DNA of 31,670 nucleotides from a virus (IMGVR_UViG_649989948_000010:1-31670); one strand, 5' to 3'. Counted from the stretch's first letter, positions 1,206-31,670 are shown. A program made the numbers and translations. The notes: a model not told the origin generated them from the sequence alone.

Positions 1206-1210
1206 TAAAA

Positions 1211-1229
1211 AGGCGGTGCATTGCACCGC
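1211..1229. terminator. Bidirectional intrinsic terminator between convergent apbC and UmuD'-like gene
   Basis: Perfect 9-bp inverted repeat GGCGGTGCA/TGCACCGCC; A-run on one side, giving a U-run on the minus-strand transcript. Confidence 0.5.
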
Positions 1230-1242
1230 CTAATCAGTTCTC

Positions 1243-1632
1243 CTACATCACGGGACAATCATCAAACTCGCCACTTCTTGCGTCGTTGATAATGTGAGTG
1301 ATCACACCAAACACGGCATTGCTGCCCGTGCATCCATCGTCATCCTTTGGCAATGCTTCCTTCTTACCGGTTCTTAAATCCTCCAGATGCTGACGTGGAT
1401 ACTTCCGGTATCTTTTTACGCGATATTCCCCATCCAGAGCGCATACAAGCAGAGAACCATCAACCGGGGTAAGTGAGGAATCGACCACCAGCAATGCACC
1501 CTGTAATATTCCCTCACGATGATGACTATCAGCTGCCCTCATGAAGTAGGTCGCTGAAGGATGTCTAATTATCTGCTGATCAAGAGAAATACGGCTCTCA
1601 GCATAATCCGCCGCAGGAGAAGGGAAGCCCAT
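1243..1632 (-). CDS. UmuD'-like S24 peptidase-family protein, naturally lacking the UmuD N-terminal arm
   Basis: 129 aa starting MGFPSPAADY, i.e. at the position of the UmuD Cys24-Gly25 cleavage site; Ser (ADSH) and Lys (VKRY) of the catalytic dyad retained; in-frame TGA directly upstream rules out a longer form; GAGG RBS. Confidence 0.7.
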   Translation of the reverse strand: MGFPSPAADYAESRISLDQQIIRHPSATYFMRAADSHHREGILQGALLVVDSSLTPVDGSLLVCALDGEYRVKRYRKYPRQHLEDLRTGKKEALPKDDDGCTGSNAVFGVITHIINDARSGEFDDCPVM

Positions 1633-1650
1633 AGCGTTTTCACCTCAGAA

Positions 1651-1670
1651 TACTGTTTATCCATACAGTA
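1651..1670 (-). promoter_or_regulatory. LexA (SOS) box upstream of the UmuD'-like gene
   Basis: Minus-strand TACTGTATGGATAAACAGTA matches CTGT-N8-ACAG; centred about 28 nt upstream of the ATG and overlapping a candidate -10 TATACT. Confidence 0.6.
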
Positions 1671-2334
1671 TACATTAAAGATGCTTGAAGTGTGCAATAG
1701 CGCGATGCTTTGCGCTCGCCTGGTGGCGCGTTATTTTTTGGCTATATCTTCTTTCTGATATACCGGATCGTTTCCTTTTGGCAGCAGGAGGCTTAACTAC
1801 CGGTAGTGCCGTAGCCGTTCCATGAAATAGGTGCGCAGGTTCTCAGGTTGCTCACGGGCTACCTGTTCCGCTATGACGGGTATGTTCAATCGCTCTTTGT
1901 AGGCAACCCCCCCTGGCAGCCAGGTCAACGTTAACTTTATTCCTTTCTTCCTGGCTTTTAGCTGCTATGTTCCAGTTGCTCATGTTTAAGGCTCACATTT
2001 CCAGATGGTATTCTGAACACCCGAACCGGGCGTAAGATGAGGGTTAGCGTTCGCACTATGCTGATATACAGCTTTGGACTTTCCATATTGCTGACAGGCT
2101 TTATCTGCGGTTTTTTGCAGGCTATCCAGCCCATACCAGCCATCAGACTGGATGCTTACCTTTTCACCGTCATTGTATTGCACCATCGCGCCCCCAAACA
2201 TAGCTATCATCGCACCGACAATACCGCTTTTCCAAAAAGCTCTAATTAGGTCATTCGTAGCCTAATGTCCGAACTGCTAAAGCATCCAAGTTGCTGTAGA
2301 ATCACCGCCAATTACATAAGCCTGAAATAAGTGG

Positions 2335-3897
2335 ATGAAAATGACAAGTATTCAACAACGTGCAGAGCTTCATCGTCAAATCTGGCAAATTGCTAACGAT
2401 GTCAGGGGTTCGGTCGATGGATGGGATTTTAAGCAATACGTTCTGGGCGCACTTTTCTACCGTTTTATCAGCGAAAATTTTTCCAGCTATATTGAAGCCG
2501 GTGATGACAGTATCTGTTATGCGAAACTGGATGACAGCGTAATTACTGATGACATTAAAGACGATGCCATCAAAACCAAAGGTTACTTCATCTACCCAAG
2601 TCAGCTTTTCTGCAACGTAGCTGCGAAAGCAAATACCAATGACAGACTGAATGCAGATTTAAACAGCATCTTCGTTGCTATCGAAAGTTCTGCTTACGGT
2701 TACCCTTCAGAAGCTGACATCAAAGGTTTGTTTGCTGATTTCGATACCACCAGTAACCGCCTGGGTAACACCGTTAAGGATAAAAATGCCCGCCTGGCTG
2801 CGGTTCTGAAAGGGGTTGAAGGGTTAAAGCTTGGCGACTTTAACGAACATCAGATTGACCTGTTCGGCGATGCCTATGAGTTCCTGATTTCTAACTATGC
2901 CGCGAATGCTGGTAAGTCAGGCGGCGAGTTCTTTACACCGCAGCACGTCTCTAAGCTGATTGCACAACTGGCTATGCACGGGCAGACCCACGTTAACAAA
3001 ATCTACGACCCGGCCGCAGGTTCCGGTTCGCTGTTGTTGCAGGCGAAAAAGCAGTTTGATGACCATATCATCGAAGAAGGCTTTTTTGGTCAGGAGATCA
3101 ACCATACGACCTATAACCTGGCGCGTATGAACATGTTTTTGCACAACATCAACTACGACAAGTTTGATATCAAGTTGGGCAATACGCTGACTGAGCCGCA
3201 CTTCAGAGATGAAAAACCGTTTGATGCCATCGTTTCTAACCCGCCGTATTCGGTGAAATGGATTGGCAGCGATGACCCGACGCTGATTAACGATGAACGT
3301 TTTGCCCCGGCTGGCGTTCTGGCCCCCAAATCCAAAGCTGACTTTGCGTTTGTATTACATGCGCTGAACTATCTTTCGGCCAAAGGTCGCGCTGCGATTG
3401 TCTGCTTCCCAGGCATTTTTTACCGTGGCGGCGCGGAGCAGAAAATCCGTCAGTATCTGGTCGACAATAACTATGTCGAAACCGTGATTTCACTGGCACC
3501 GAATCTGTTCTTTGGCACCACTATTGCCGTCAATATTCTGGTGCTGTCTAAACATAAAACGGATACCAAAGTTCAGTTTATTGATGCCAGCGAACTGTTC
3601 AAAAAAGAGACTAACAACAACATTCTGACCGATGCTCATATCGAACAGATTATGCAGGTATTTGCCAGCAAGGAAGATGTTGCTCATCTGGCGAAATCTG
3701 TTGCGTTTGAGACTGTTGTCGCGAATGACTATAACCTGTCGGTGAGCAGCTATGTGGAAGCGAAAGATACTCGCGAAATTATCGATATCGCTGAGCTGAA
3801 TGCTGAGCTGAAAACCACGGTCAGCAAAATCGACCAGTTGCGTAAAGATATTGATGCGATTGTTGCTGAGATTGAAGGTAGCGAGGTACAGGCATGA
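2335..3897 (+). CDS. hsdM: Type I restriction-modification methyltransferase subunit HsdM (type IC-like)
   Basis: 520 aa; N6-adenine MTase motifs ([12 protein letters not shown]); N-terminus matches the EcoR124-family HsdM as I recall it; 4-bp ATGA overlap with hsdS. Confidence 0.93.
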
Positions 3898-5141
3898 GCG
3901 AGCTGAGTTATCTGGAAAAACTGCTGGATGGGGCTGAGGTTGAGTGGGTAGCATTAAATAAATTAGCAACTTTTTTAAAAGGGAAGTCTTTACCTAAAGA
4001 AAAAATAACTCCAGATGGCAATAGATATTGTATTCATTACGGTGAGCTTTTCACTCATTATGGTCCCATAATTGACAAAGTATGCTCAAAAACAAACCAA
4101 GCAATCAATGAGTCAATTCTATCTGAAAAAAATGATGTTCTAATGCCAACGTCAGACGTTACACCAAGAGGTTTGGCTACAGCTAGTTGCATTCAAGAAA
4201 GTGGCGTTATTTTAGGCGGCGATATTTTGATTATTAGATGCTCTGGTGTTGATGGTAGATATCTAAGTAATTTCATAATAAATAACAAAAAAAAGATATT
4301 GCAAATGGTTAAAGGTTCTACTGTTTATCATTTGTATGCTAAAGATATAGGTAAATTACTTATCCCCATCCCTTGCCCCAACAACCCGGAAAAGTCGCTG
4401 GCTATCCAGTCTGAAATCGTCAGGATTCTGGATAAATTTACTGCACTTACCGCTGAGCTTACCGCTGAGCTTAGCATGCGTAAAAAACAATACAACTACT
4501 ATCGCGACCAGTTGTTGAGTTTTAAAGAGGGTGAGGTTGAGTGGAAAGCTTTGGGGGAAATTGGTGAAGTTCGTATGTGTAAACGAATCCTAAAATCACA
4601 AACATCTTCTGAGGGAGAGATTCCATTTTATAAAATTGGGACATTTGGTAAGGAACCCGATTCCTATATATCTAGAAAACTATTTAATGAATTTAAAGAA
4701 AAATATAGTTATCCTAAAGTTGGCGAAGTATTGATTTCTGCCAGTGGGACCATCGGCAGGACTGTTATATTTGATGGTAGGGAATCATATTTCCAGGATA
4801 GCAATATTGTCTGGATTGAAAATAATGAAAAAATAGTTTTAAATAAATATTTATTCTATTTCTATAAAATAGCAAAATGGGGAATATCTGAAGGTGGAAC
4901 TATTAAAAGACTTTATAATGATAACTTAAGAAAACTTATGATACCAGTACCATTTCCTGATTCTCCTGAAAGATCGCTAGTTGAACAACAAAAAATAGTG
5001 AAATTACTGGATAAATTTGATGCTTTGACCAATTCCATCACCGAAGGTCTTCCGCGTGAAATCGAGTTGCGCCAGAAACAATACGAGTACTATCGTGATT
5101 TACTGTTCAGTTTTCCCAAACCTGAAACTATCAGTAACTAA
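3894..5141 (+). CDS. hsdS: Type I restriction-modification specificity subunit HsdS
   Basis: 415 aa; conserved central ([16 protein letters not shown]) and C-terminal ([37 protein letters not shown]) regions flanking two AT-rich variable domains. Confidence 0.9.
4448..4471 (+). repeat. Tandem 12-bp repeat (TACCGCTGAGCT x2) encoding TAEL-TAEL in the HsdS central spacer
   Basis: Direct tandem duplication read in the sequence; repeat number in this spacer sets recognition-site spacing in type IC systems. Confidence 0.85.
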
Positions 5142-5262
5142 TTGACCATTGCTACCGACCGGATCACCTTAACATCCGGTCTATATAGAGACTATTTTTT
5201 ACACGCCGGAAGTCGCCCTTAAAGCCCTTCCGGCCCTTGCCAGACGGCACAAAGGATGCGCT

Positions 5263-8200
5263 ATGACTCATCAGACACACACCATTGCTGAATCCAATAA
5301 CTTTATCGTTCTTGATAAGTACATCAAAGCCGAGCAAACAGGCGACAGCTACCAGAGCGAATCGGACCTGGAACGTGAACTGATTCAGGATCTGCGGAAT
5401 CAGGGCTATGAATTTATTTCCGTAAAATCTCAGTCGGCGATGCTGGCCAACGTTCGGGAACAGCTTCAGAACCTCAATGGTGTGGTGTTTAATGACAGCG
5501 AATGGCGGCGTTTCACGGAGCAGTATCTGGATAACCCGAGCGATGGCATCCTGGATAAGACCCGTAAAATCCATATCGACTATATTTGCGACTTTATTTT
5601 TGATGACGAGCGTCTTGAGAACATCTATTTGATAGATAAAAAGAATCTCATGCGCAACAAGGTGCAGATTATCCAGCAGTTTGAACAGACGGGTTCTCAT
5701 GCTAACCGTTATGACGTCACGATCCTGGTTAATGGCTTACCGCTGGTACAAATCGAACTGAAAAAGCGCGGCGTGGCGATTCGTGAGGCCTTTAACCAGA
5801 TACATCGTTACAGCAAAGAGAGTTTTAACAGCGAAAATTCTCTGTTTAAGTATCTGCAACTGTTTGTCATTTCCAACGGCACCGATACCCGTTACTTTGC
5901 CAACACGACAAAGCGCGATAAAAACAGTTTTGACTTCACCATGAATTGGGCGAAATCAGACAACACGCTGATTAAAGACCTCAAAGACTTTACCGCCACC
6001 TTTTTCCAGAAACATACCCTGCTTAATGTCTTAGTGAACTACAGCGTATTCGATGTTAGCCAAACGCTACTGGTGATGCGACCGTACCAGATTGCCGCCA
6101 CTGAGCGCATTCTGTGGAAAATTAAGAGTTCCTTTACAGCGAAGAACTGGTCAAAACCGGAAAGCGGTGGGTATATCTGGCACACTACCGGTTCAGGTAA
6201 AACCCTCACCAGCTTTAAAGCCGCGCGTCTGGCAACAGAGCTGGACTTTATTGATAAAGTCTTCTTCGTGGTCGACAGGAAAGACCTCGATTACCAGACC
6301 ATGAATGAATATAAGCGTTTTTCGCCAGACAGCGTCAACGGCTCGGAAAATACCGCAGGTCTTAAACGCAATCTGGATAAGGACGATAACAAAATTATCG
6401 TCACCACTATTCAGAAACTTAATAACCTGATGAAAGCAGAAAGCGACCTGCCTGTATACAATCAGCAAGTGGTGTTTATATTTGATGAATGTCACCGCAG
6501 CCAGTTTGGAGAAGCGCAGAAAAACCTGAAGAAGAAATTCAAACGCTATTATCAGTTTGGTTTTACCGGCACACCTATTTTCCCGGAAAACGCCTTAGGC
6601 TCAGAAACGACCGCCAGCGTATTTGGTCGTGAATTGCATTCGTATGTAATTACCGATGCGATTCGTGATGAAAAAGTGCTCAAATTCAAGGTGGACTACA
6701 ACGATGTGCGGCCACAGTTTAAATCTTTAGAGACAGAAACCGACGAGAAAAAACTGAGTGCGGCTGAAAATCAGCAGGCATTTCTTCATCCCATGCGTAT
6801 ACAGGAAATTACGCAATATATTCTGAATAACTTCCGCCAGAAGACCCACCGTACTTTCCCAGGTTCCAAAGGCTTTAATGCCATGCTGGCAGTGAGTAGC
6901 GTGGATGCCGCGAAAGCCTATTACGCGACGTTTAAACGGTTACAAGAGGAAGCAGCTAATAAATCGGCTACCTATAAACCGCTGCGTGTTGCAACAATCT
7001 TCTCCTTTGCCGCCAATGAAGAACAAAATGCCATTGGTGAAATTTCCGATGAAACTTTTGATACCAGCGCAATGGACAGCAGTGCTAAAGAGTTTCTTGA
7101 CGCTGCAATTCGTGAGTATAACAGCTATTTTAAAACTAACTTCAGCACCGACAGTAACGGTTTTCAGAACTACTATCGTGATTTAGCCCAACGGGTTAAA
7201 AATCAGGATATCGATCTGTTAATTGTCGTTGGGATGTTTTTAACCGGCTTCGACGCTCCAACATTGAACACGCTATTCGTCGATAAAAACTTGCGTTTTC
7301 ACGGCCTGATGCAGGCATTCTCCCGTACCAACCGCATTTATGACGCTACTAAAACCTTCGGTAACATCGTCACTTTTCGGGATCTGGAACGCTCAACCAT
7401 TGATGCCATAACGCTGTTTGGTGATAAAAATACTAAAAATGTGGTGTTAGAAAAGAGTTATGCTGAGTATATGGAAGGCTTTACAGATGCTGCCACTGGT
7501 GAAGCTAAACGCGGCTTTATGGCAGTAGTTTCAGAACTGGAACAACGGTTCCCTGACCCTGCCAGTATTGAAAGTGAAAAAGAGAAGAAAGACTTCGTAA
7601 AACTGTTTGGTGAATACCTGCGTGCCGAGAACATCCTGCAAAACTATGATGAATTTGCCACGCTGAAAGCCCTGCAACAAATCGATCTTAGCGATCCTGT
7701 TGCGGTAGAAAAATTCAAAGCAGAACATTATGTGGATGATGAAAAGTTCGCTGAATTGCAAACAATTCGTCTCCCTGCTGAACGCAAGATTCAGGATTAT
7801 CGTTCTGCCTATAACGATATTCGCGACTGGCAGCGCCGTGAGAAAGAAGCTGAGAAAAAAGAGAAATCAACCACTGACTGGGATGACGTAGTTTTTGAGG
7901 TCGATTTGCTGAAGTCTCAGGAAATAAACCTGGATTATATCCTTGGACTGATTTTCGAACACAACAGACAAAATAAAGGCAAGGGCGAAATGATCGAAGA
8001 GGTCAAACGCTTAATTCGTTCAAGCCTGGGGAACCGGGCGAAAGAGGGCCTGGTGGTCGATTTTATTCAGCAAACGAACCTGGATGATTTACCAGACAAA
8101 GCCAGTATCATTGAGGCATTCTTTACGTTTGCTCAACGCGAACAGCAACGTGAAGCAGAAGCATTGATAAAAGAAGAAAATCTCAATGAAGAGGCGGCGA

Positions 8201-8379
8201 AACGCTATATTCGCACGTCTTTAAAACGCGAATACGCCACCGAAAATGGCACAGAATTAAACGAGACATTACCAAAACTTAGTCCGTTAAACCCGCAATA
8301 TAAAACGAAAAAACAGACCGTTTTCCAGAAAATCGTCACGTTTATTGAAAAGTTCAAAGGAGTAGGTGGGCAGATATAG
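5263..8379 (+). CDS. hsdR: Type I restriction endonuclease subunit HsdR (type IC-like)
   Basis: 1038 aa; SF2 helicase motifs (TGSGKT, DECHRS), type I HsdR architecture; AGGA RBS. Confidence 0.93.
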
Positions 8380-8437
8380 TGTATTAATCTGAACCAGATC
8401 TGGCAGACATCTGTGCAAATTGCAGATAGCTGTCAGA

Positions 8438-8914
8438 TCAAACCATCGTAGGGATGTTTGTATCCACTTTGAACTCAGGTACACCAACGAACTCTTTAAC
8501 CTTCATCTGGTAGCCGGTTCTGTCAGTTTTGATGACTTCCTGTTTGCCCTCTATAAACTGCTCACGCCACTCGTCGCGACGGGAAGCTGGCATGATCAGC
8601 AAAACGTTAGTCATATCCGTGACCTTCCTCCAGTACTCGGCCCAAATATTCTGTTTCACCCATTCCAGATCGACTTTATCCAGCCAAGCTCGATTCAAAC
8701 GTGAGCGTTCTTCATCTGGTCGATGGTTCAGTTGCAGCAGGCGATTAATCATGTTGTGGCGTTCGTCGCCATAAACGAAGTCGTGAACCTGATACATGAA
8801 GGCGATCTCTTTCTCGCACTCGGCTACGATTTCGTGGATGACGTTCATTTCCTGACGATAATCGATAGCAGTGTTTGAGTTGGTATCGTCGATGATGGAA
8901 AGAGCTGTATTCAT
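8438..8914 (-). CDS. Hypothetical protein (158 aa), first gene after hsdR, convergent with it
   Basis: ORF with ATG start; contains an R-x5-H motif (RLLQLNH) that could be HEPN-like; no family recognised. Confidence 0.45.
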   Translation of the reverse strand: MNTALSIIDDTNSNTAIDYRQEMNVIHEIVAECEKEIAFMYQVHDFVYGDERHNMINRLLQLNHRPDEERSRLNRAWLDKVDLEWVKQNIWAEYWRKVTDMTNVLLIMPASRRDEWREQFIEGKQEVIKTDRTGYQMKVKEFVGVPEFKVDTNIPTMV

Positions 8915-9017
8915 AATTGCACCATTAAGAAAAGATTTGTTTAATAGTGCAATTATTTCAAAAATGAAAAGGTGCTAAATAGAAATTAACAGGCAATCCT
9001 TTAAATAAAGGTATTTG

Positions 9018-9632: not shown

Positions 9633-9634
9633 AA

Positions 9635-9916: not shown

Positions 9917-9970
9917 TTTTCACCCTTGTTTTTATCAACACAATATGGCCGATCATGCGGCCATATCAGA

Positions 9971-22367: not shown

Positions 22368-24683
22368 TCAGATTTTGCAGGCTCCGTCGCACTCATCTTC
22401 TGGCTCGACGGCTACAGCTTGCGCCAGTGGATTCTGCGGTTCGTCGTCATCACGTTTTCCTGCACCATCTCTGGTGTTGTGGTAGTAAAGCGTTTTAACT
22501 CCCATCTTGTAGGCGAGAAGCAAATCTGACAGTAGCGTCATCATTGGGACTTTATCGCCTTCAAAGCGAGAAGGGTCATAGTTGGTATTGGCTGAAATAG
22601 CCTGGTCAAAGAACTTCTGGATGATCGCCACCTTTGTCAGATAGCCGCGGTTGTCCGGCATATCCCACAGGTATTCATACTGTTCCTTCAGTTTTTCAAA
22701 CTCAGGCACGACCATCTTAACGATGCCGTCCTTAGAAGATTTCACCGACACCGGGCCACGAGGCGGTTCGATGCCGTTGGTGGAATTAGTGATCTGGCTG
22801 GAAGTCTCGCATGGCATTTGTGCCGTCAGTGTGGAGTTGCGAAGGCCGTATTTTGCAATACGTTCACGCAGTTCTTCCCACGGCATCTTTAACTCAAAGT
22901 TGGTTTCGCCACTTTCGTCTAATGAAGAACGGTAATGGTCGATCGGCAACTGACCAATTGCGTACTTGGTCTGCTCAAACCAGTCACACTCACCTTTTGC
23001 TTCAGCAAGTCGGCAGCTGGCATCAAGAAGGTAATACTGGATAGCTTCGAATGTTTCATGCACCAGTTTATTGCCAGCGGTATCAGAATAACGAACGCCA
23101 TTCTTTGCCAGGTAATAAGCAAAGTTGGTTACACCAATTCCCAAGCTACGACGAGCTTTGGCAGGCACTTCGGCTGCCTCCATCGGATAGTCTTGATAAT
23201 CCAGTAACGAATCCAGTGCAGCAACGGCATAGAACGCCACCTCTTTAAGAGACTCCAGTGAACGGATGGCTCCGAGGTTAAAAGCGGATAAAGTGCATAG
23301 CGCGATCTCACCGTTCGGGTCGTCGGTAAATGCCAGTGGACGGGTGGGTAGGGTGATCTCCATACACAGGTTTGACTGGCGGACAGGTGCAAGAGCAGGA
23401 ATGAAAGCGCCATGCTCATTAATATGATCGACGTTCGCAATATAAATTCGGCCCGTGGACGCTCGTTCCTGCATCAGAGATGAGAACAGCTCAATGGCAG
23501 GTACTGACTTCTTGCGAATTGAATCATCGGCTTCGTATTTATGGTACAGCTTTTCAAACAGCTCCTGGTCTGTGAAGAAGGCTTCGTACATATCAGGCAC
23601 ATCATGCGGGCTGAACAGAGTGATGTTCTCGCTTCTGACGAGTCGACGGTACATTAGACGGTTACTCATGACGCCGTAATCAAGATGGCGAACGCGGTTT
23701 TCATCAATACCACGGTTATTTTTCACCACCAGCAGACTTTCAACTTCAAGATGCCAGATCGGGTAAAACGCTGTTGCTGCGCCACCACGAACACCACCTT
23801 GCGAACAAGATTTAACAGCCGTCTGGAAATGCTTCAGGAATGGAATAACTCCGGTATGGGTGGCTTCACCATTGCGGATCTCGCTGCCCAGCGCACGGAT
23901 ACGGCCAAAACCAATACCAATTCCAGCACGACGTGAAACGTAGTCGATAATTGCGGCTGAAGCTGCACTAATCCCTTTCAGGCTATCGCCAGACTCAATC
24001 AGCACACAACTGGAGAACTGACGGGTTGGAGTACGGACGCCGGCCATGATTGGTGTGGGCAGAGACAGTTTGAACGTACTTGTAACGTCATAGAAACCTT
24101 TGACCATCTCCATACGTGTTTTGCCAGCGCAGTCGTCTTCCCAATTCTGGAACAGACACATGCCTACCAGCATATAGATATGTTGCGGCCCCTCATGAAT
24201 CTCACCAGTAACACGGTTTTGAACGAGGTATTTGCTTTGCAACTGCACCGTAGCTGCATAGCCAAAAAGATCGTCACGTTTCGGCTTAATGTAATTGCCG
24301 AGTTCTTCGATCTCTTCAAACGAATAATGTGTCAGCAAATCCTTGTCATAAACGCCCTTGTTAACGTTCTTGACAATGTGTTGGTAGAAGTTCGGATAGT
24401 CGTAACGACCGAAGGCATCTTTGCGGATTTTAAAAATGTTCAGGCGGGCAGCCACCTGTGAGTAATTTGGTGCTTCTGGTGAGATCAAATCAGCGGCAGA
24501 TTTAACCAAAGCCTCATGCAACTGGCTGGTGGTCATCCCATCAAAAATGCTGGCCGCAGCTCCCATTGCTACAGCGGATGCGCTTACACCACGAATGCCT
24601 TCTACGCCATACATTACGACGCGGTTGTATTTTTCTTCGGATAACGGCTCTGTTTGGCCGTTACGTTTTACGATGCTTATCAT
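22368..24683 (-). CDS. nrdA: Ribonucleotide reductase class Ia large subunit
   Basis: 771 aa; ATP-cone-like N-terminus, C-terminal Tyr pair; collinear with E. coli NrdA. Confidence 0.92.
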   Translation of the reverse strand: MISIVKRNGQTEPLSEEKYNRVVMYGVEGIRGVSASAVAMGAAASIFDGMTTSQLHEALVKSAADLISPEAPNYSQVAARLNIFKIRKDAFGRYDYPNFYQHIVKNVNKGVYDKDLLTHYSFEEIEELGNYIKPKRDDLFGYAATVQLQSKYLVQNRVTGEIHEGPQHIYMLVGMCLFQNWEDDCAGKTRMEMVKGFYDVTSTFKLSLPTPIMAGVRTPTRQFSSCVLIESGDSLKGISAASAAIIDYVSRRAGIGIGFGRIRALGSEIRNGEATHTGVIPFLKHFQTAVKSCSQGGVRGGAATAFYPIWHLEVESLLVVKNNRGIDENRVRHLDYGVMSNRLMYRRLVRSENITLFSPHDVPDMYEAFFTDQELFEKLYHKYEADDSIRKKSVPAIELFSSLMQERASTGRIYIANVDHINEHGAFIPALAPVRQSNLCMEITLPTRPLAFTDDPNGEIALCTLSAFNLGAIRSLESLKEVAFYAVAALDSLLDYQDYPMEAAEVPAKARRSLGIGVTNFAYYLAKNGVRYSDTAGNKLVHETFEAIQYYLLDASCRLAEAKGECDWFEQTKYAIGQLPIDHYRSSLDESGETNFELKMPWEELRERIAKYGLRNSTLTAQMPCETSSQITNSTNGIEPPRGPVSVKSSKDGIVKMVVPEFEKLKEQYEYLWDMPDNRGYLTKVAIIQKFFDQAISANTNYDPSRFEGDKVPMMTLLSDLLLAYKMGVKTLYYHNTRDGAGKRDDDEPQNPLAQAVAVEPEDECDGACKI

Positions 24684-24700
24684 GTATCACCAAATAAAGA

Positions 24701-24722
24701 GGGCCACTAAATATAGTGGCCC
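24701..24722 (-). terminator. Stem-loop between the RuvC-like gene and nrdA
   Basis: 9-bp stem GGGCCACTA/TAGTGGCCC with 4-nt loop, followed on the minus strand by TCTTTATTT just before the nrdA RBS. Confidence 0.4.
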
Positions 24723-24756
24723 ATGTTAATAGATAAGCACTTACCTATCAATGAAA

Positions 24757-25326
24757 TCAAATGAGAGACTTAAGAACATCGCGCACCTGGCGGAACTGAT
24801 CTGTTTGCATACCGGTATGGATGGCAGCCACCGCATCAGCCAAATGTTCGTTTTTGTTCACGAGAACATCCTGTCCAGATTGCTTACGACGCAGCCACGG
24901 TGCTTTAGGGTGTTTTTTCGTAGCCCACTGGATAATCTCTTCTTTCGATGTAGTAAGTTTATTGCCGACAAAATGCTTGATTTCGTTTGGAGTAACCTGG
25001 ATCAATGGCTTATCCACACACGCAAGTACACCGATACAAATACCGTAAGACGTCTGCGAACGAGAGTTTTGGCTCCCAACCGGTAGCTCACAAAAAACCA
25101 TATTTGCCTTATCAATGATTGGCTTCGCAACACGCCATATTTCACTGGCTCGGCGCAGATCGTCACTGTTCACACGAACGGTCTTTTTGTTACTCCCCGC
25201 TTTAGTCTCAACAAGAGTAAGGCCGTGAATCTCAAGTTCGTCCGTCTCAAGGTCTAAAGTGCCCACAGCAAGCCCAAAGTTGCTCATTGAGGGATCAACA
25301 CCAACTACGCTGATTTTTTTACTCAT
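24757..25326 (-). CDS. RuvC-like Holliday junction resolvase
   Basis: 189 aa; N-terminal VVGVDPS (compare RuvC GIDPG), acidic residues at positions expected for the RuvC fold; strong AAGGAG RBS. Confidence 0.55.
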   Translation of the reverse strand: MSKKISVVGVDPSMSNFGLAVGTLDLETDELEIHGLTLVETKAGSNKKTVRVNSDDLRRASEIWRVAKPIIDKANMVFCELPVGSQNSRSQTSYGICIGVLACVDKPLIQVTPNEIKHFVGNKLTTSKEEIIQWATKKHPKAPWLRRKQSGQDVLVNKNEHLADAVAAIHTGMQTDQFRQVRDVLKSLI

Positions 25327-25335
25327 ATAGTCTCC

Positions 25336-26079
25336 TTACCATGTTCCCCATATAGGGTTTTCCAATAATCTCGCCTCCAACGAATTGGCTACTATTGCCG
25401 TTTGCAACGTTGGTTGGGGATAGTTTGCAAAGTCTGAATACTCATTTTCCTGCGTGACACGTTTATCTGCGGCATGTTTAACACCACTTGCTATGAAATG
25501 ACGCATGATGCCCAACAGCCTCCGACTGTCTGCACTATCGTTTGCTAAAACATGAGGGAGCTGAAGTTCGATTTCTACCATTTCTCCATACTTCCCAACA
25601 AACTGTAGTTTGTCCGCACTGTACTTTTTATCCCTCCTTTGGATAAGGAAACCAGTAAAAGCATCACCTGGCGATGCCAAACTATCTACCCGCTTATTGG
25701 CAAGTCGAATAAGGTTCGTGAAAGCCATACAGTGATGCGCACCCATTCCCCCAAAGAACCCTTCGCTATTAATGTTAAGATCTTCAGTTTCATGGGATGC
25801 AATAAACCCAGGCCCGACGTTGGGAAGATATCCCCCCTCAACAAAAGGATTAATCAGGATCGGCGCAATACATCCAGGTGGTAGTGATTTCAAACTTTGC
25901 ATCAATGGCGTCTCGGATATTAGACCAAGCAACGCGGCGAATTGTACTCCGTCAATATTGTTGCTGCCCCACAGAATACGTGGAGCCGCACCATTGGAAG
26001 TATGCCCATTGATCAGTTTTATCGACTGCATCACTGCAAATACCTGCAAAAACTGCGAGCGGCTTAATTTAAACGACAT
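25336..26079 (-). CDS. Hypothetical protein (247 aa)
   Basis: AGAGGGG RBS; lies between the truncated SbcC-like gene and the RuvC-like gene; no family recognised. Confidence 0.5.
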   Translation of the reverse strand: MSFKLSRSQFLQVFAVMQSIKLINGHTSNGAAPRILWGSNNIDGVQFAALLGLISETPLMQSLKSLPPGCIAPILINPFVEGGYLPNVGPGFIASHETEDLNINSEGFFGGMGAHHCMAFTNLIRLANKRVDSLASPGDAFTGFLIQRRDKKYSADKLQFVGKYGEMVEIELQLPHVLANDSADSRRLLGIMRHFIASGVKHAADKRVTQENEYSDFANYPQPTLQTAIVANSLEARLLENPIWGTW

Positions 26080-26396
26080 AGCTGCGCCCCTCTTTAACTT
26101 CCAGCGTAATAGTTTCCCGGAACCATGACTTCATCTCTTTATGGGAGATAATCAGCACAGTACCTCGCTCGCGAGCTTTGGACTCCAGAATACCCATGAG
26201 GCGTTCAAGACCGGCTGTATCGAGTGCATCGTCAATTTCGTCGCCGATAAACAAATCGATGTTTTTACTCGCCCGGTTACTAACCAGATCCTGCAATGCC
26301 AAAGAACACGCAATGCGAACCTTCCGCTTCTCACCACCAGAGAGGGTCTGGAACGACTTACTTGAACCTTTCTTCTGCACACTAATGTTGAATTTG
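26069..26396 (-). pseudogene. 3' fragment of an SbcC/Rad50-like (ABC-type) ATPase gene, truncated by IS66 insertion
   Basis: Encodes only the C-terminal signature LSGGEKRK, Walker B/D-loop LFIGDEIDDALD and H-loop ISHK; reading frame runs into the IS66 left end at 26397. Confidence 0.55.
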
Positions 26397-26482
26397 TGTA
26401 AGCGTAAACTGACCGCCGTATGTAGCCATCAGACGAGAATTGGTAACTTAGACGCCCATCTGATATAGACGGACATCTAAGT

Positions 26483-26908
26483 ATGGAATTACAGGACTGG
26501 CGAAAAGAACCTCGTAAAAACTATTCGAATGAATTCAAACTTCGTATGGTGGAACTGGCATCACAACCTGGAGCTTGTGTTGCACAGATTGCACGTGAAA
26601 ATGGCGTCAATGATAATGTTATTTTCAAATGGCTCAGGCTCTGGCAGAACGAAGGGCGTGTTTCACGGCGTCTTCCGGTAACGACCTCTTCTGACACTGG
26701 CGTTGAATTATTACCTGTAGAAATAACGCCGGATGAGCAGAAAGAACCTGTGGCGGCCATTGCGCCGTCTTTATCCACTTCCACTCAGACCAGAGTCAGT
26801 GCCAGTTCCTGCAAGGTGGAATTCCGTCACGGTAACATGACGCTGGAAAATCCATCGCCAGAGCTGCTCACAGTGTTGATCCGTGAACTGACCGGGAGGG
26901 GAAGATGA
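26483..26908 (+). CDS. IS66-family accessory protein (orfA)
   Basis: 141 aa HTH-like protein; 4-bp overlap with orfB. Confidence 0.85.
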   Translation: MELQDWRKEPRKNYSNEFKLRMVELASQPGACVAQIARENGVNDNVIFKWLRLWQNEGRVSRRLPVTTSSDTGVELLPVEITPDEQKEPVAAIAPSLSTSTQTRVSASSCKVEFRHGNMTLENPSPELLTVLIRELTGRGR

Positions 26909-27255
26909 TCTCACTCCCATCAGGTACCCGTATCTGGCTCGTTGCCGGCGTTACCGATATGCGTAAATCCTTCAACGGACTGGGAGAACAGGTACAACAT
27001 GTGCTGAATGATAATCCCTTCTCCGGTCACCTGTTTATCTTCCGTGGCCGACGGGGTGACACCGTCAAAATTCTTTGGGCTGATGCTGATGGTCTGTGCC
27101 TGTTCACCAAACGCCTGGAGGAAGGCCAGTTTATCTGGCCTGCGGTACGTGACGGCAAGGTATCCATTACCCGCTCGCAACTGGCAATGCTCCTCGATAA
27201 GCTGGACTGGCGTCAGCCAAAAACATCCAGCCGTAACTCACTGACAATGTTGTAA
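26905..27255 (+). CDS. IS66-family accessory protein (orfB)
   Basis: 116 aa; conserved IS66 orfB pattern (LWADADGLCLFTKRLEEGQF). Confidence 0.85.
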   Translation: MISLPSGTRIWLVAGVTDMRKSFNGLGEQVQHVLNDNPFSGHLFIFRGRRGDTVKILWADADGLCLFTKRLEEGQFIWPAVRDGKVSITRSQLAMLLDKLDWRQPKTSSRNSLTML

Positions 27256-27285
27256 AAAACTCCTGACCGCATTATAAAAACGGTC

Positions 27286-28899
27286 ATGAGTCAGAAATAC
27301 CTCATTCGCATCGCAGAGCTGGAAAGGTTGCTCTCTGAGCAGGCTGAAGCCCTCCGTCAGAAAGACCAGCAACTGAGTCTGGTTGAAGAGACGGAAGCCT
27401 TCCTGCGCTCTGCACTGACACGTGCCGAAGAAAAGATCGAAGAAGATGAACGGGAAATAGAACATCTGCGGGCTCAGATAGAAAAACTGCGCCGGATGCT
27501 GTTCGGTACCCGTTCTGAAAAACTGCGTCGTGAAGTTGAACTGGCTGAGGCTCTGCTGAAACAACGTGAACAGGACAGCGATCGTTACAGTGGGCGGGAA
27601 GACGATCCTCAGGTTCCCCGCCAGTTGCGACAGTCGCGCCATCGTCGTCCGTTACCGGCACACCTTCCCCGTGAAATACACCGCCTGGAGCCAGAAGAAA
27701 GCTGTTGCCCGGAGTGTGGCGGTAAGCTGGATTATCTGGGGGAAGTCAGCGCTGAACAGCTGGAACTGGTGAGCAGTGCCCTGAAAGTGATCCGCACAGA
27801 ACGGGTAAAAAAAGCCTGTACAAAATGTGACTGTATTGTTGAAGCACCGGCGCCGTCTCGCCCGATAGAGCGTGGTATCGCGGGCCCCGGATTACTTGCC
27901 CGCGTGTTAACGGGAAAATACTGCGAACATCTGCCACTGTATCGTCAGAGTGAAATCTTTGCCCGCCAGGGTGTCGAACTGAGCCGGGCCTTACTCTCCA
28001 ACTGGGTTGACGCGTGCTGCCAGTTAATGACACCGGTGAATGATGCCCTGTACCGTTATGTAATGAACACCCGCAAGATTCACACTGATGACACACCGGT
28101 AAAGGTACTGGCACCGGGTCAGAAAAAGGCGAAAACAGGGCGTATCTGGACGTATGTCCGGGATGATCGCAATGTGGGTTCGTCATCTCCTCCAGCGGTC
28201 TGGTTCGCGTACTCGCCGAACCGGCAGGGGAAACACCCGGAGCAACACCTCCGCCCCTTCCGGGGTATCCTGCAGGCGGATGCGTTCACAGGTTACGACA
28301 GGTTGTTCAGTGCAGAACGTGAAGGTGGTGCACTGACAGAAGTTGCGTGCTGGGCCCATGCCCGGCGAAAAATCCACGATGTATACATCAGCAGCAAAAG
28401 TGCGACGGCAGAAGAAGCACTGAAGCGAATCAGTGAACTGTACGCCATCGAGGATGAAATACGGGGATTACCGGAGTCAGAGCGTCTTGCCGTCAGGCAG
28501 CAGCGAAGCAAAGTGTTACTGACGTCGCTGCATGAATGGATGGTGGAGAAGAATGGTACGCTGTCGAAAAAATCCAGACTGGGCGAAGCGTTCAGCTATG
28601 TACTGAATCAGTGGGATGCCCTCTGTTATTACAGTGATGACGGTCTGGCGGAGGCGGATAATAATGCTGCGGAAAGAGCGCTTCGTGCAGTCTGTCTCGG
28701 AAAGAAAAACTTTATGTTCTTTGGCAGCGATCACGGCGGCGAGCGTGGAGCACTGTTGTACGGGCTGATCGGCACCTGCCGTCTGAACGGTATCGATCCG
28801 GAAGCGTATCTGCGCCATATCCTGAGCGTACTGCCGGAATGGCCTTCCAACCGAGTTGATGAACTCCTGCCATGGAACGTAGTACTCACCAATAAATAA
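27286..28899 (+). CDS. IS66-family transposase (orfC)
   Basis: 537 aa; coiled-coil N-terminus, CxxC zinc-finger-like region, conserved catalytic core. Confidence 0.85.
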   Translation: MSQKYLIRIAELERLLSEQAEALRQKDQQLSLVEETEAFLRSALTRAEEKIEEDEREIEHLRAQIEKLRRMLFGTRSEKLRREVELAEALLKQREQDSDRYSGREDDPQVPRQLRQSRHRRPLPAHLPREIHRLEPEESCCPECGGKLDYLGEVSAEQLELVSSALKVIRTERVKKACTKCDCIVEAPAPSRPIERGIAGPGLLARVLTGKYCEHLPLYRQSEIFARQGVELSRALLSNWVDACCQLMTPVNDALYRYVMNTRKIHTDDTPVKVLAPGQKKAKTGRIWTYVRDDRNVGSSSPPAVWFAYSPNRQGKHPEQHLRPFRGILQADAFTGYDRLFSAEREGGALTEVACWAHARRKIHDVYISSKSATAEEALKRISELYAIEDEIRGLPESERLAVRQQRSKVLLTSLHEWMVEKNGTLSKKSRLGEAFSYVLNQWDALCYYSDDGLAEADNNAAERALRAVCLGKKNFMFFGSDHGGERGALLYGLIGTCRLNGIDPEAYLRHILSVLPEWPSNRVDELLPWNVVLTNK

Positions 28900-28993
28900 G
28901 CGTCAATACGGTGCTCCGTTGACGCTTACTTCAGGTGCATCCGGTCCCCCTTGTTTTTGATACAAAACACGCCTCACAGACGGGTAATTTTGC

Positions 28994-29002
28994 TTATCCA
29001 CA
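28994..29002 (+). promoter_or_regulatory. DnaA box (TTATCCACA), possible remnant of an IncFII-type plasmid origin
   Basis: Exact DnaA-box consensus in a non-coding stretch upstream of the CPBP-pemI-pemK block; origin assignment is inference. Confidence 0.3.
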
Positions 29003-29756
29003 TTAAACTGCAAGGGACTTCCCCATAAGGTTACAATCGTTAATGTCATAAAGCGCCAGCCGTCAGCCCTACAGGGTGCAATGTATCTTTTAAACACCTG
29101 TTTATATCTCCTTTAAACTACTTAATTACATTCATTTAAAAAGAAAACCTATTCACTGCTTGTCCTATGGACAGACAGATATGCACCTCCCACCGTAAAC
29201 GGCGGGCCCCAACCGGAGCCACTTTAGTTACAACACACAAAACCAACCTCCAGAAAAACCCCGAACCAGCGCAGAACTGAAACCACAAAGCCCCTCCCTC
29301 ATAACTGAAAAGCGGCCCCGCCCCGGCCCTTCGGGCCGGAACAGAGTCGCTTTTAATTATGAATGTTGTAACTACATCTTCATCGCTGTCAGTCTTCTCG
29401 CTGGAAGTTCTCAGTACACGCTCGTAAGCGGCCCTCACGGCCCGCTAACGCGGAGATACGCCCCGACTTCGGGTAAACCCTCGTCGGGACCACTCCGACC
29501 GCGCACAGAAGCTCTCTCATGGCTGAAAGCGGGTATGGTCTGGCAGGGCTGGGGATGGGTAAGGTGAAATCTATCAATCAGTACCGGCTTACGCCGGGCT
29601 TCGGCGGTTTTACTCCTGTATCATATGAAACAACAGAGTGCCGCCTTCCATGCCGCTGATGCGGCATATCCTGGTAACGATATCTGAATTGTTATACATG
29701 TGTATATACGTGGTAATGACAAAAATAGGACAAGTTAAAAATTTACAGGCGATGCA

Positions 29757-30410
29757 ATGATTCAAACACGTAATCAATATCTGCAGTTTATGCTGGTTAT
29801 GCTGGCTGCATGGGGCATTAGTTGGGGAGCCAGATTTGTCATGGAGCAGGCCGTTCTGCTTTATGGATCAGGAAAAAACTATTTGTTCTTCAGTCATGGT
29901 ACTGTTCTGATGTACCTGCTGTGTGTTTTCCTGGTATACCGCCGTTGGATAGCTCCGCTACCGGTCGTTGGTCAGCTGCGCAACGTTGGCGTACCGTGGC
30001 TGGTCGGTGCGATGGCCGTGGTGTATGTCGGTGTATTTCTGCTCGGTAAGGCGCTGGCTCTGCCTGCTGAGCCATTTATGACGAAACTTTTTGCCGATAA
30101 GTCCATACCTGACGTGATCCTGACGTTGCTGACCATCTTTATCCTTGCCCCGTTGAATGAGGAAACGCTGTTCCGGGGGATTATGCTGAACGTCTTCCGT
30201 TCACGGTACTGCTGGACGATGTGGCTGGGGGCGCTGATAACGTCGTTGTTGTTCGTCGCCGCGCACAGCCAGTATCAGAACCTGCTGACACTGGCAGAAC
30301 TGTTCCTGGTGGGGTTGATTACATCAGTGGCCAGGATCAGAAGTGGTGGCCTGCTGCTGCCGGTATTGCTGCATATGGAAGCAACCACGCTGGGTTTACT
30401 GTTTGGTTGA
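29757..30410 (+). CDS. CPBP-family intramembrane protease-like protein (CAAX protease family)
   Basis: 217 aa polytopic membrane protein with EETLFRG, FVAAHSQY and LLH motifs. Confidence 0.7.
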   Translation: MIQTRNQYLQFMLVMLAAWGISWGARFVMEQAVLLYGSGKNYLFFSHGTVLMYLLCVFLVYRRWIAPLPVVGQLRNVGVPWLVGAMAVVYVGVFLLGKALALPAEPFMTKLFADKSIPDVILTLLTIFILAPLNEETLFRGIMLNVFRSRYCWTMWLGALITSLLFVAAHSQYQNLLTLAELFLVGLITSVARIRSGGLLLPVLLHMEATTLGLLFG

Positions 30411-30467
30411 AAGTTATATTTTTATTAAACATTGTGCGTTAAAGCCTGGTGTGTTTTTTTAGTGGAT

Positions 30468-30485
30468 GTTATATTTAAATATAAC
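30468..30485 (+). promoter_or_regulatory. 18-bp perfect palindrome GTTATATTTAAATATAAC in the pemIK promoter region
   Basis: Perfect inverted repeat 18 nt upstream of the pemI ATG; consistent with an autoregulatory operator. Confidence 0.5.
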
Positions 30486-30502
30486 TTTTATGGAGGTGAA
30501 GA

Positions 30503-30760
30503 ATGCATACCACCCGACTGAAGAGGGTTGGCGGCTCAGTTATGCTGACCGTCCCACCGGCACTGCTGAATGCGCTGTCTCTGGGCACAGATAATGAAGT
30601 TGGCATGGTCATTGATAATGGCCGGCTGATTGTTGAGCCGTACAGACGCCCGCAATATTCACTGGCTGAGCTACTGGCACAGTGTGATCCGAATGCTGAA
30701 ATATCAGCTGAAGAACGAGAATGGCTGGATGCACCGGCGACTGGTCAGGAGGAAATCTGA
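30503..30760 (+). CDS. pemI: Antitoxin PemI (Kis)
   Basis: 85 aa, matches plasmid PemI as recalled (MHTTRLKRVGGSVMLTVPPALL...); GGAGGTG RBS. Confidence 0.9.
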   Translation: MHTTRLKRVGGSVMLTVPPALLNALSLGTDNEVGMVIDNGRLIVEPYRRPQYSLAELLAQCDPNAEISAEEREWLDAPATGQEEI

Positions 30761-30761
30761 C

Positions 30762-31094
30762 ATGGAAAGAGGGGAAATCTGGCTTGTCTCGCTTGATCCT
30801 ACCGCAGGTCATGAGCAGCAGGGAACGCGGCCGGTGCTGATTGTCACACCGGCGGCCTTTAATCGCGTGACCCGCCTGCCTGTTGTTGTGCCCGTAACCA
30901 GCGGAGGCAATTTTGCCCGCACTGCCGGCTTTGCGGTGTCGTTGGATGGTGTTGGCATACGTACCACAGGTGTTGTACGTTGCGATCAACCCCGGACAAT
31001 TGATATGAAAGCACGGGGCGGAAAACGACTCGAACGGGTTCCGGAGACTATCATGAACGAAGTTCTTGGCCGCCTGTCCACTATTCTGACTTGA
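30762..31094 (+). CDS. pemK: Toxin PemK (Kid), MazF-family endoribonuclease
   Basis: 110 aa starting MERGEIWLVSLDPTAGHEQ; the ORF-track entry 30630-31094 is over-extended upstream. Confidence 0.9.
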   Translation: MERGEIWLVSLDPTAGHEQQGTRPVLIVTPAAFNRVTRLPVVVPVTSGGNFARTAGFAVSLDGVGIRTTGVVRCDQPRTIDMKARGGKRLERVPETIMNEVLGRLSTILT

Positions 31095-31471
31095 ACATGG
31101 GGTTTGAGGGGCAACTGGATGAAAACGTACGATTTAGGGCACTAAAACCGCTGTTGTCCCACCATTCTGGTGATTCCCAAACGTTATTTGGCTAAAAAGT
31201 AGTTTTGATGTGGTTTATTTTCCGAATTCCAAGCGCAGCCCTACTTTCTTGTGCGTATTTGCGTGTTTTGCGCAGTTTTGAAGTTCCTACATCAGATTGA
31301 CTTCGGATACAAATTCAATGAACATTGATGCAAATACTGACCTATCAGTTTCTTAACTAAATACTCGAGATACATCTAATGGCTAATGAAAACTTAGATA
31401 TTGACTCCAAGACAGCAGAAGAATTATACGAGTGGTATCTGGATGATAAATTAATTATAAATCGAAGATAC

Positions 31472-31670
31472 GGTGATGCTGCCAACTTACTGATTTAGTG
31501 TATGATGGTGTTTTTGAGGTGCTCCAGTGGCTTCTGTTTCTATCAGCTGTCCCTCCTGTTCAGCTACTGACGGGGTGGTGCGTAACGGCAAAAGCACCGC
31601 CGGACATCAGCGCTATCTCTGCTCTCACTGCCGTAAAACATGGCAACTGCAGTTCACTTACACCGCTTCT
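31472..31670 (+). mobile_element. IS1 left end (partial; runs off the window)
   Basis: GGTGATGCTGCCAACTTACTGATTTAGTGTATGATGGTG matches the IS1 terminal inverted repeat. Confidence 0.85.
31527..31670 (+). CDS. insA: IS1 InsA (5' partial)
   Basis: GTG start; translation [47 protein letters not shown] matches InsA. Confidence 0.8.

Follow-up and report, generated by a model that had tools for sequence, protein, structure and literature searches.

A phage-plasmid/IncF junction running through ISEc23 in a draft contig of Escherichia coli MS 145-7 is probably an assembly chimera

The SSU5-like phage-plasmids (P-Ps) comprise the SSU5/pHCM2 group, including Cyrano, PhiR41_1, CMS-2020a and plasmids of ~110 kb in PLSDB. 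Their shared gene order begins with metG, apbC and an S24 peptidase gene and includes, further along, genes for TciA/B-like proteins, RNase H, Dam, exonuclease, DHFR (dfrA51), ThyA, MazG-like protein, NrdBA, RuvC-like and SbcCD-like proteins and a Rep3 initiator. Co-integrates of P-Ps with plasmids are an acknowledged category (PMC12977533). The stretch of DNA analyzed here (the window, 31,670 bp) has the same order and is the entire contig ADWS01000048.1 of the draft assembly GCA_000179115.1 of E. coli MS 145-7, a strain for whose plasmids no description was found in the literature searched. It consists of an SSU5-like P-P segment (1–26397), a complete ISEc23 and IncFII DNA (28930–31670), in that order (Table 1). 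The bulk of the window is thus a piece of a well-known SSU5-like P-P with its own diverged apbC and a type I restriction system, and the mosaic of apbC, restriction-modification (R-M) and phage genes is ordinary, already known P-P architecture. The sequence-only reading had placed a core chromosomal gene (apbC), an R-M system, a phage module and an IncF backbone on one contiguous molecule. The four components are indeed present at roughly the places given, but apbC is not the core chromosomal gene, and the contiguity is a property of the draft contig alone: in the closed assembly of this strain, the two sides are on different plasmids.

Table 1 Features of the window
Feature	Coordinates	Strand	Basis or remarks
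metG-apbC divergent intergenic region	1..104	.	metG immediately upstream, divergent in CP146657
P-P-borne apbC (mrp) paralog, 366 aa	105..1205	+	nt identity survey; presence in phage Cyrano
S24 peptidase (HumD/UmuD'-like)	1243..1632	-	RefSeq annotation; Pfam Peptidase_S24
Variable cargo block (theta pseudogene + hsdMSR)	1681..8440	.	homology breakpoints vs Cyrano, chromosomal islands, L024
DNA polymerase III theta (P1 HOT-like) pseudogene	1731..1983	-	annotated frameshifted, internal stop
hsdM, type I methyltransferase subunit, 518 aa	2341..3897	+	HsdM_N, N6_Mtase
hsdS, type IC specificity subunit, 415 aa	3894..5141	+	Methylase_S, TAEL repeat
hsdR, type I restriction subunit, 1038 aa	5263..8379	+	HSDR_N, ResIII, EcoR124_C
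DUF4942/methyltransferase-like gene, N-terminal fragment	8441..8914	-	annotated incomplete, C-terminus missing; phrog_6263 positions 1-150 of 548
Conserved SSU5-like P-P module (nucleotide metabolism, DNA processing)	8441..26397	-	identity to SSU5, Cyrano, PhiR41_1, CMS-2020a
TciA/B-like, RNase H, Dam methyltransferase, exonuclease, AAA_28, PNK-like genes	within 8441..26397	-	P-P module
HNH endonuclease ORF	16080..16874	-	phrog_374, 6.8e-79
DfrA51 (dfrA51)	18009-18485	-	P-P module
ThyA	18897-20000	-	P-P module
MazG-like	20172-21041	-	P-P module
NrdB	21119-22261	-	P-P module
NrdA	22368-24683	-	P-P module
RuvC-like	24757-25326	-	P-P module
phrog_2117 ORF	25336-26079	-	P-P module
SbcC-like (SMC_N/AAA_23) P-P gene, C-terminal fragment	26069..26397	-	gene split by ISEc23
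ISEc23 (IS66 family), 2,532 bp	26398..28929	+	tnpA/tnpB/tnpC, GTAAGCG... terminal inverted repeats, Pfam matches
IncFII oriR/repA4 region	28930..29700	+	100% identity to IncFII plasmids
DnaA box TTATCCACA	28994-29002		in oriR
repA4 ORF	29277-29567	+	
tir / CPBP-family intramembrane protease	29757..30410	+	Rce1-like; IncF plasmid match
pemI	30503-30760	+	toxin-antitoxin pair with pemK
pemK	30762-31094	+	toxin-antitoxin pair with pemI
IS1A left end, first 199 bp	31472..31670	+	contig ends inside repeat

The middle of the window, which had been read as phage-derived, is P-P DNA: positions 8441–26397 are 95.9–98.8% identical to the virion-derived genome of Cyrano (OV696614), and all 10 of the unannotated ORFs tested in the phage part match PHROG families. 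Of positions 1–25000, 46% align to SSU5 at 77.5% identity and 68% align to Cyrano, PhiR41_1 and CMS-2020a at 96.8–98.6%. Outside the window, the circular plasmid record CP146657 carries genes for terminase, portal, capsid, tape measure and tail fibres together with those for a Rep3/RepB-family initiator and ParB-family proteins. Similarity and gene order place the element in the SSU5 group, and structural as well as replication and partition genes reside on one replicon. Close relatives have been deposited as phage genomes; the MS 145-7 copy has an SbcC-like gene split by an IS and sits in a 198-kb fusion. Positions 1–26397 are genuine contiguous P-P DNA, with a mosaic appearance that is normal for the SSU5-like family. 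Scans of the window for tRNAs, Rfam families and tandem repeats returned nothing relevant except a repeat in hsdS.

In the closed assembly of MS 145-7 (GCF_037094535.1; CP146657 and CP146658), the window is divided between two plasmids. Positions 1–28929 match CP146657, the 198-kb P-P::IncC cointegrate, without mismatches and depart from it at two 1-bp homopolymer indels, where the draft under-calls the run length, and positions 26398–31670 are 100% identical to CP146658, a separate 80.7-kb IncF plasmid. The overlap of the two matches is exactly the 2,532-bp IS, the only sequence common to both plasmids, and what comes after the IS in CP146657 is not IncF DNA but IncC tra genes. No record covering at least 80% of the P-P/IncF join was found among 72,556 PLSDB plasmids or among 5,426 complete E. 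coli genomes. Draft contig ADWS01000042.1, which carries the remainder of the split SbcC-like gene (EFO55988.1), stops 232 bp inside ISEc23, and a Logan contig from run SRR088910, which appears to come from this strain, ends 30 bp inside the same element; the IS-truncated protein on this Logan contig occurs otherwise in the MS 145-7 draft only.

ISEc23 has its three ORFs and terminal inverted repeats in the window, and its 8-bp duplication is seen at the IncF copy, not at the window copy. All four copies compared (one in the window, two in CP146657 and one in CP146658) are 100% identical. The flanking 8-mers in the window are hybrid, GAATTTGT–IS–TTCAGGTG, without a matching duplication: the SbcC-like fragment terminates in the 8-bp target GAATTTGT (26390–26397), and the IncF part starts with TTCAGGTG, half of the IncF target duplication, which is intact in CP146658 (TTCAGGTG–IS–TTCAGGTG). 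The copies in CP146657 are flanked as CTGTAGAA–IS–GAATTTGT and GAATTTGT–IS–CTGTAGAA, from which the 8-bp target duplications of both the P-P and the IncC sites can be reconstructed. In relatives, the empty P-P site has a single GAATTTGT, and the P-P insertion was found in MS 145-7 only. Contigs with the truncated SbcC-C protein were also considered as independent IS junctions and discarded: the three matches besides the source are uninterrupted P-Ps with a single GAATTTGT.

Because the join passes through a multi-copy IS and conflicts with the finished MS 145-7 genome, it is most likely an artefact, and the contiguity of P-P and IncF DNA is probably a repeat-collapse assembly chimera of two MS 145-7 plasmids. 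The identities and breakpoints, the target duplications and the placement on separate plasmids in the closed genome are observed; that the join arose in silico rather than in the cell is what we infer. In MS 145-7, ISEc23 inserted into the SbcC-like gene of the P-P at the target GAATTTGT, and identical copies are present in the IncC segment and in the IncF plasmid, where the element sits between repA and oriR within an intact TTCAGGTG duplication; the draft assembler, presumably unable to resolve a perfect 2.5-kb repeat, would have emitted a single full IS copy between the left P-P flank and the right IncF flank, and this collapsed copy would therefore create the appearance of a chromosomal gene, R-M, phage and IncF DNA on one molecule. 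A misassembled contig was the outcome that the sequence-only reading had named as fatal to its proposal, and for the P-P/IncF join this is largely what was encountered, given that the closed genome separates the two sides and the join passes exactly through the 2,532-bp IS present in three identical plasmid copies.

It is unlikely that the join is real, that is, that the draft culture contained a cointegrate of the IncF plasmid with the P-P, the latter alone or already joined to IncC, formed either by RecA-dependent recombination between the identical IS copies or as an unresolved product of ISEc23 transposition from IncF to the P-P, giving a conjugatively conducible P-P::IncF molecule. The flanks GAATTTGT–IS–TTCAGGTG are exactly those expected from one crossover between copy B of CP146657 and the IncF copy, as well as from transposition out of IncF into the P-P target with formation of a cointegrate; the complete identity of the ISEc23 copies and the restriction of the P-P insertion to MS 145-7 imply recent events; the closed genome already holds one such fusion, P-P::IncC with reciprocal flanks; and the category as such is acknowledged (PMC12977533). 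Against a real join, IncF is an independent 80.7-kb circle in the closed assembly, its target duplication intact, and the P-P flank is joined there to IncC; the draft assembler was demonstrably short of information to cross ISEc23 at the other P-P junction; two stocks of one strain would have to differ in their dominant plasmid structure; and the join was found in no other genome in PLSDB or among the complete E. coli genomes. In a P-P::IncF cointegrate, one molecule should bear an IS copy at either junction, the two in direct orientation and with reciprocal flanks, but only one junction is present, and the flanks are paired differently in the closed genome.

We similarly give little credence to the contig being correct for the draft culture as part of a three-replicon network, in which ISEc23 would join the P-P to one of two conjugative plasmids, IncF or IncC, in alternation. 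Were this true, the phage would gain conjugative spread (conduction) and the DNA of conjugative plasmids would be exposed to phage packaging, the window being one captured state, possibly an intermediate in the transfer of ISEc23 from IncF to the P-P.

A wrong assembler path and a real single crossover between identical IS copies yield the same sequence. The P-P::IncC fusion is bracketed by direct ISEc23 copies; if it was correctly assembled, plasmids of MS 145-7 do recombine or cointegrate across ISEc23, which raises the prior for a P-P::IncF fusion. The draft and closed assemblies are years apart and possibly come from different sub-cultures.

With the assembly chimera as the preferred explanation, the case mainly counsels caution, in that an apparent linkage of a chromosomal gene, a defence system, a phage and an IncF plasmid can arise from two ordinary causes, namely, the normal cargo of SSU5-like P-Ps, which includes a metG-apbC pair of their own, and an IS whose copies collapsed in a short-read draft. 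If real, the join would be one more IS-mediated fusion of a P-P with a conjugative plasmid, a process that is already recognised and is illustrated by the P-P::IncC molecule of MS 145-7. No new kind of system is implied under either reading.

The apbC gene belongs to the P-P itself. Each of the 5,421 chromosomal E. coli copies has only 82.5–85% nucleotide identity to it, and the copies at least 95% identical to it are plasmid-borne (220 plasmid places), contrary to the claim that apbC here is a core chromosomal gene; the encoded protein is 95.1% identical to K-12-type ApbC. The contig starts 53 bp from the start codon of metG, which itself lies off the contig, and high identity to chromosomal metG begins within the intergenic region. 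On the other side of apbC, CP146657 has metG and, beyond it, genes of the P-P for helicase, partition and structural proteins; yehE, the neighbour of apbC on the chromosome, does not occur in the window, where the S24 peptidase gene follows apbC instead. The window therefore has neither the species-level allele nor the metG-apbC-yehE synteny of the core locus. Although Enterobacteriaceae carry apbC and metG as core chromosomal genes, with the same divergent arrangement on the chromosome, there is next to no chance that a plasmid or P-P integrated in the chromosome by apbC, leaving the left end of the window chromosomal, given an allele ~83% identical to every chromosomal apbC of E. coli and 95–100% identical to plasmid and phage copies, chromosomal homology that stops at the two gene ends without yehE, P-P genes on both sides in a closed plasmid, and packaging of the same pair in the genome of phage Cyrano. 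The proposed integration next to apbC is thus refuted by allele identity, synteny and closed-genome context, and the window contains no chromosomal junction. The other proposal, that a plasmid captured chromosomal DNA, survives in an evolutionary sense: the SSU5-like P-P lineage of E. coli holds a captured, divergent metG-apbC pair, found in virion-derived genomes such as that of Cyrano, whose homology to the chromosome ends exactly at both gene ends. This pair has probably been long retained under purifying selection after its capture by the P-P lineage; no discussion of metG or apbC in SSU5-like P-Ps was found in the literature searched.

The genes hsdM, hsdS and hsdR are all intact ORFs with the domains of their families and make up a complete type I R-M operon. 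In a hallmark of type IC systems, the central conserved region of HsdS has a 12-bp TAEL repeat in two copies (TAELTAEL; 4446–4473), and the only PDB relative of this protein is EcoR124II HsdS (E = 4.4e-71); HsdR likewise has the EcoR124_C domain. The first target-recognition domain, however, finds no match in EcoR124II, the alignment being limited to residues 154–415, so that the specificity presumably differs. The cargo block replaces ~5.9 kb of Ea22-like and DUF4942 genes of phage Cyrano and cuts short the DUF4942/methyltransferase-like gene. One counterpart is the humD-hot region of a P1/P7-like phage-plasmid (locus L024), where the cassette is 98.7% identical and likewise preceded by S24 peptidase (87.5% nt identity) and theta (93.5%) genes, although theta is a pseudogene in the window. 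Chromosomal islands share positions 2329–8379 and L024 shares 1986–8379; against these and Cyrano, the breakpoints are plain homology ends. IS elements had been expected at the internal junctions: ISEc23 is indeed at 26398–28929, but none is found at the cassette borders (1681 and 8440), and IS1 lies at the contig end. This is probably a swappable cargo slot, with the HumD/theta/type IC hsdMSR block exchanged, free of IS, with P1-like P-Ps and chromosomal islands.

Beyond this slot, which holds the theta pseudogene and type IC hsdMSR rather than Ea22-like/DUF4942 genes, the window resembles other SSU5-like P-Ps along 1–1680 and 8441–26397 (96–99% identity to Cyrano) and SSU5 itself along 8444–25000 (~77%). 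It differs in the SbcC-like gene split by ISEc23, in the fusion of the element to an IncC plasmid in the closed genome, and in an extra HNH endonuclease ORF, which is an insertion relative to Cyrano (alignment gap 16082–16878) and most relatives and is missing in loci L007–L016. The right end was correctly recognized as IncF backbone from pemIK, the DnaA-box region and IS1: 28930–31670 is 100% identical to IncF plasmids. IncFII plasmids of the R100/R1 type with ISEc23, for example, pRSB225 (JX127248) and many IncF plasmids of E. coli and other Enterobacteriaceae, are 100% identical across ISEc23-oriR-repA4-tir-pemI-pemK-IS1 and have the DnaA box at the repA-proximal edge of oriR. The assignment of oriR is based on this identity, not on the DnaA-box consensus, which alone is not above chance in the window (2 found vs 1.5 expected). 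Of the replicon, the window holds oriR/repA4 and downstream genes; repA1, copA and repA2, which lie to the left of the IS in IncFII plasmids, are missing, with P-P DNA in their place. Like IS-mediated co-integrates of plasmids and P-Ps, the window has a full IS at the boundary of two backbones with non-matching 8-bp flanks, but with one junction, the reciprocal one not observed, and a pairing that the closed genome contradicts, whereas the P-P::IncC molecule of the closed genome shows the complete signature of two direct IS copies and reciprocal flanks.

The window comprises all of ADWS01000048.1 (31,670 bp), a contig of the draft assembly GCA_000179115.1 of E. coli MS 145-7, and we compared it with the closed assembly of the same strain, GCF_037094535.1. 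Positions 1-28929 match the 198,406-bp plasmid CP146657 without mismatches but with two 1-bp indels, and positions 26398-31670 are 100% identical to a separate, 80,697-bp IncFIA/IncFII plasmid, CP146658, the two matches overlapping only at 26398-28929, that is, in ISEc23. The sequence-only reading rightly recognized four genuine components, namely, apbC, a restriction-modification (R-M) system, phage DNA and an IncF backbone, but assigned them to one contiguous molecule, whereas the phage-plasmid and IncF parts are on separate plasmids in the closed genome. The only differences between the draft and closed sequences are homopolymer under-calls in the draft at 12818 and 15494 (T8 vs T9 and A7 vs an 8-nt run), the lengths in the closed genome being shared by relatives at both sites. 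Because the first under-call falls within the RNase H gene, the 225-aa open reading frame (ORF) at 12198-12875 of the window is probably an artefact of it.

The four copies of ISEc23 compared are mutually 100% identical, and the sole full copy emitted in the draft has flanks from different plasmids of the closed genome: its left side is the phage-plasmid flank of copy B of CP146657, and its right side is that of the IncF copy, a pairing that does not occur in the closed genome. The other part of the split SbcC-like gene (EFO55988.1, HMPREF9348_04863, 540 aa) is on draft contig ADWS01000042.1 (39,032 bp), which ends 232 bp into ISEc23, and a Logan contig from run SRR088910 with the same IS-truncated protein ends 30 bp into the element; the draft assembler thus had no information to traverse it. 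Both window ends are also typical of repeat-limited contig ends, the start being the point where identity to chromosomal metG climbs above 90% and the 3' end falling within IS1. A repeat-collapse chimera is the likely origin of the join. We consider it unlikely that a genuine phage-plasmid::IncF cointegrate was present in the culture first sequenced: the closed genome contradicts the contiguity, and the join is not covered to at least 80% in one place by any PLSDB plasmid or any of 5,426 complete E. coli genomes. Some probability is nevertheless retained for the cointegrate because one crossover between identical IS copies would yield exactly the same sequence, the fusion with an IncC plasmid in the closed genome suggests such events in MS 145-7, and phage-plasmid co-integrates are an acknowledged category (PMC12977533).

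Features of the window and flanks of the ISEc23 copies (8-mers in IS orientation; window positions unless stated otherwise)
Feature	Position	Strand	Details
apbC	105-1205		phage-plasmid-borne copy
Variable block	1681-8440		breakpoints vs Cyrano
12-bp tandem repeat	4446-4473		CTTACCGCTGAG x2.3; hsdS, central conserved region
HNH endonuclease ORF	16080-16874	-	264 aa; phrog_374, E = 6.8e-79
DHFR gene	18009-18485	-	RefSeq annotation: trimethoprim-resistant DfrA51
ISEc23 (IS66 family)	26398-28929		2,532 bp; tnpA/tnpB/tnpC; GTAAGCG-type ends; flanks GAATTTGT left, TTCAGGTG right
ISEc23, IncF copy			flanks TTCAGGTG left, TTCAGGTG right; target duplication intact
ISEc23, CP146657 copy A			flanks CTGTAGAA left, GAATTTGT right
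ISEc23, CP146657 copy B			flanks GAATTTGT left, CTGTAGAA right
ISEc23 copies A and B as a pair, NZ_CP146657.1 (L003, L005)	21972-24503 and 107129-109660 of NZ_CP146657.1		identical direct repeats; reciprocal 8-bp flanks
oriR DnaA box	28994-29002		TTATCCACA; AT-rich DNA next
repA4, tir/CPBP, pemI, pemK	right of ISEc23
IS1	right end		first 199 bp

The 198-kb plasmid itself consists of a 110.7-kb phage-plasmid and an 82.6-kb conjugative IncC plasmid that are fused between two directly repeated copies of ISEc23, given that copies A and B carry reciprocal flanks and that relatives without the insertion have one GAATTTGT, within a 638-aa SMC_N/AAA_23 (SbcC-like) gene. At ~198 kb, the fusion well exceeds the ~110-kb genome size of the SSU5-like phage family and presumably cannot be packaged, but conjugation could transfer it.

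The DNA to the right of ISEc23 is identical to IncF plasmids, for example, pRSB225, with the gene order repA2-repA6-repA1-[ISEc23]-repA4-tir-pemI-pemK-IS1; repA1 is missing from the window. In the IncF plasmid (window 28930-29002; compared locus L002, 5399-8114), ISEc23 is located between repA1 and oriR, 120 bp past the repA stop and 64 bp ahead of the oriR DnaA box, putting 2.5 kb between the initiator gene and its origin. This IS-oriR junction was found in the best 25 PLSDB matches listed, all IncF-type plasmids.

The apbC gene, previously taken as a core chromosomal gene, is cargo, and the window contains no chromosome junction: its identity to apbC of 5,421 E. coli chromosomes is 82.5-85%, copies with at least 95% identity are plasmid-borne (220 plasmid places), and in CP146657 it is flanked by a divergent metG just past the left end of the window. 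The E. coli chromosome has the same metG/apbC arrangement, with yehE after apbC, and the related phage Cyrano shares with the phage-plasmid the trio of MetRS, 'MinD' (that is, ApbC) and S24-peptidase genes. When aligned with a K-12-type chromosome, the homology of the pair ends at both gene ends, with identities of 92-98% (nucleotide) and 98.7% (amino acid) for metG, and 76-89% and 95.1%, respectively, for apbC. Among species-representative genomes, metG is nearest to Escherichia (~93.7% vs ~87% for Citrobacter), and apbC is about equidistant from all those compared (80-84%). These comparisons of identity, synteny and gene-end homology indicate that the pair was captured from a chromosome by the phage-plasmid lineage and retained under purifying selection. 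The stronger divergence of apbC than of metG from the E. coli chromosome (window 1-1205; locus L001, 9914-13205), with homology ending at the gene ends, is suggestive of a mosaic origin, or of host-templated gene conversion of the phage-plasmid metG. The left end of the window coincides with the start of the high-identity metG stretch.

The hsdM, hsdS and hsdR genes are all intact and comprise a type IC system, as indicated by the tandem repeat in hsdS encoding TAELTAEL, the sole solved HsdS relative, the EcoR124II specificity subunit (E = 4.4e-71), and the EcoR124_C domain of HsdR. In EcoR124I/II, the number of repeat copies determines how long the spacer in the recognition site is; unequal crossing-over at this repeat could therefore switch specificity. 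Where the window has the variable block, Cyrano carries Ea22-like genes and the C-terminal section of a DUF4942 gene, of which the N-terminal 158 codons remain in the window (8441-8914). Neither border of the block carries an IS, and the proposal of IS elements at internal junctions holds only for ISEc23 at the phage-plasmid/IncF junction. An identical HsdS was found in 3,104 collection blocks representing three contexts, namely, SSU5-like phage-plasmids, chromosomal islands and a P1/P7-like phage-plasmid. In the islands, homology is limited to 2329-8379, essentially hsdMSR only (from six bases before the first in-frame hsdM ATG to the hsdR stop); the P1/P7-like phage-plasmid is 98.7% identical over 1986-8379 and, as in the window, also has diverged S24-peptidase (humD-like) and theta (hot-like) genes.

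The left 26.4 kb of the window is an SSU5-like phage-plasmid. Its copy in CP146657 encodes terminase, portal, capsid, tape-measure and tail-fibre proteins, together with a Rep3/RepB-type initiator and ParB-family proteins. The window lacks the structural genes and contains a nucleotide-metabolism and DNA-processing block typical of the family, in the order TciA/B-like, RNase H, Dam, exonuclease, AAA_28, DHFR, PNK-like, ThyA, MazG-like, NrdB, NrdA, RuvC-like, SbcC-like; all 10 unannotated ORFs tested match PHROG families (E-values 1e-60 to 1e-150). The DfrA51 allele has been recently reported in SSU5-type phage-plasmids, and its expression in E. coli increased the trimethoprim MIC (PMC12217456). 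The HNH ORF, which separates the exonuclease gene from the following one, is absent from Cyrano and ten other relatives and therefore resembles a free-standing homing-endonuclease insertion. In a 5.57-Mb chromosome record (CP043541.1, 4064062-4084805; locus L013), SSU5-like genes follow straight after btuB-murI, beginning within a truncated SbcD-like gene; either a phage-plasmid has integrated into this chromosome, or this is a further assembly join. The genuine, phage-plasmid part of the window is a member of a known family, identical to a RefSeq record. Among the matches listed, ~110 kb plasmids show 95-99% identity to window 1-25000 across 93% or more of its length; coverage of this region in one place reaches at least 80% in 36 PLSDB records. 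The deposited genomes of phages Cyrano, PhiR41_1 and CMS-2020a are 97-99% identical to it over 68% of the length, and Salmonella phage SSU5 is ~77% identical over 8444-25000.
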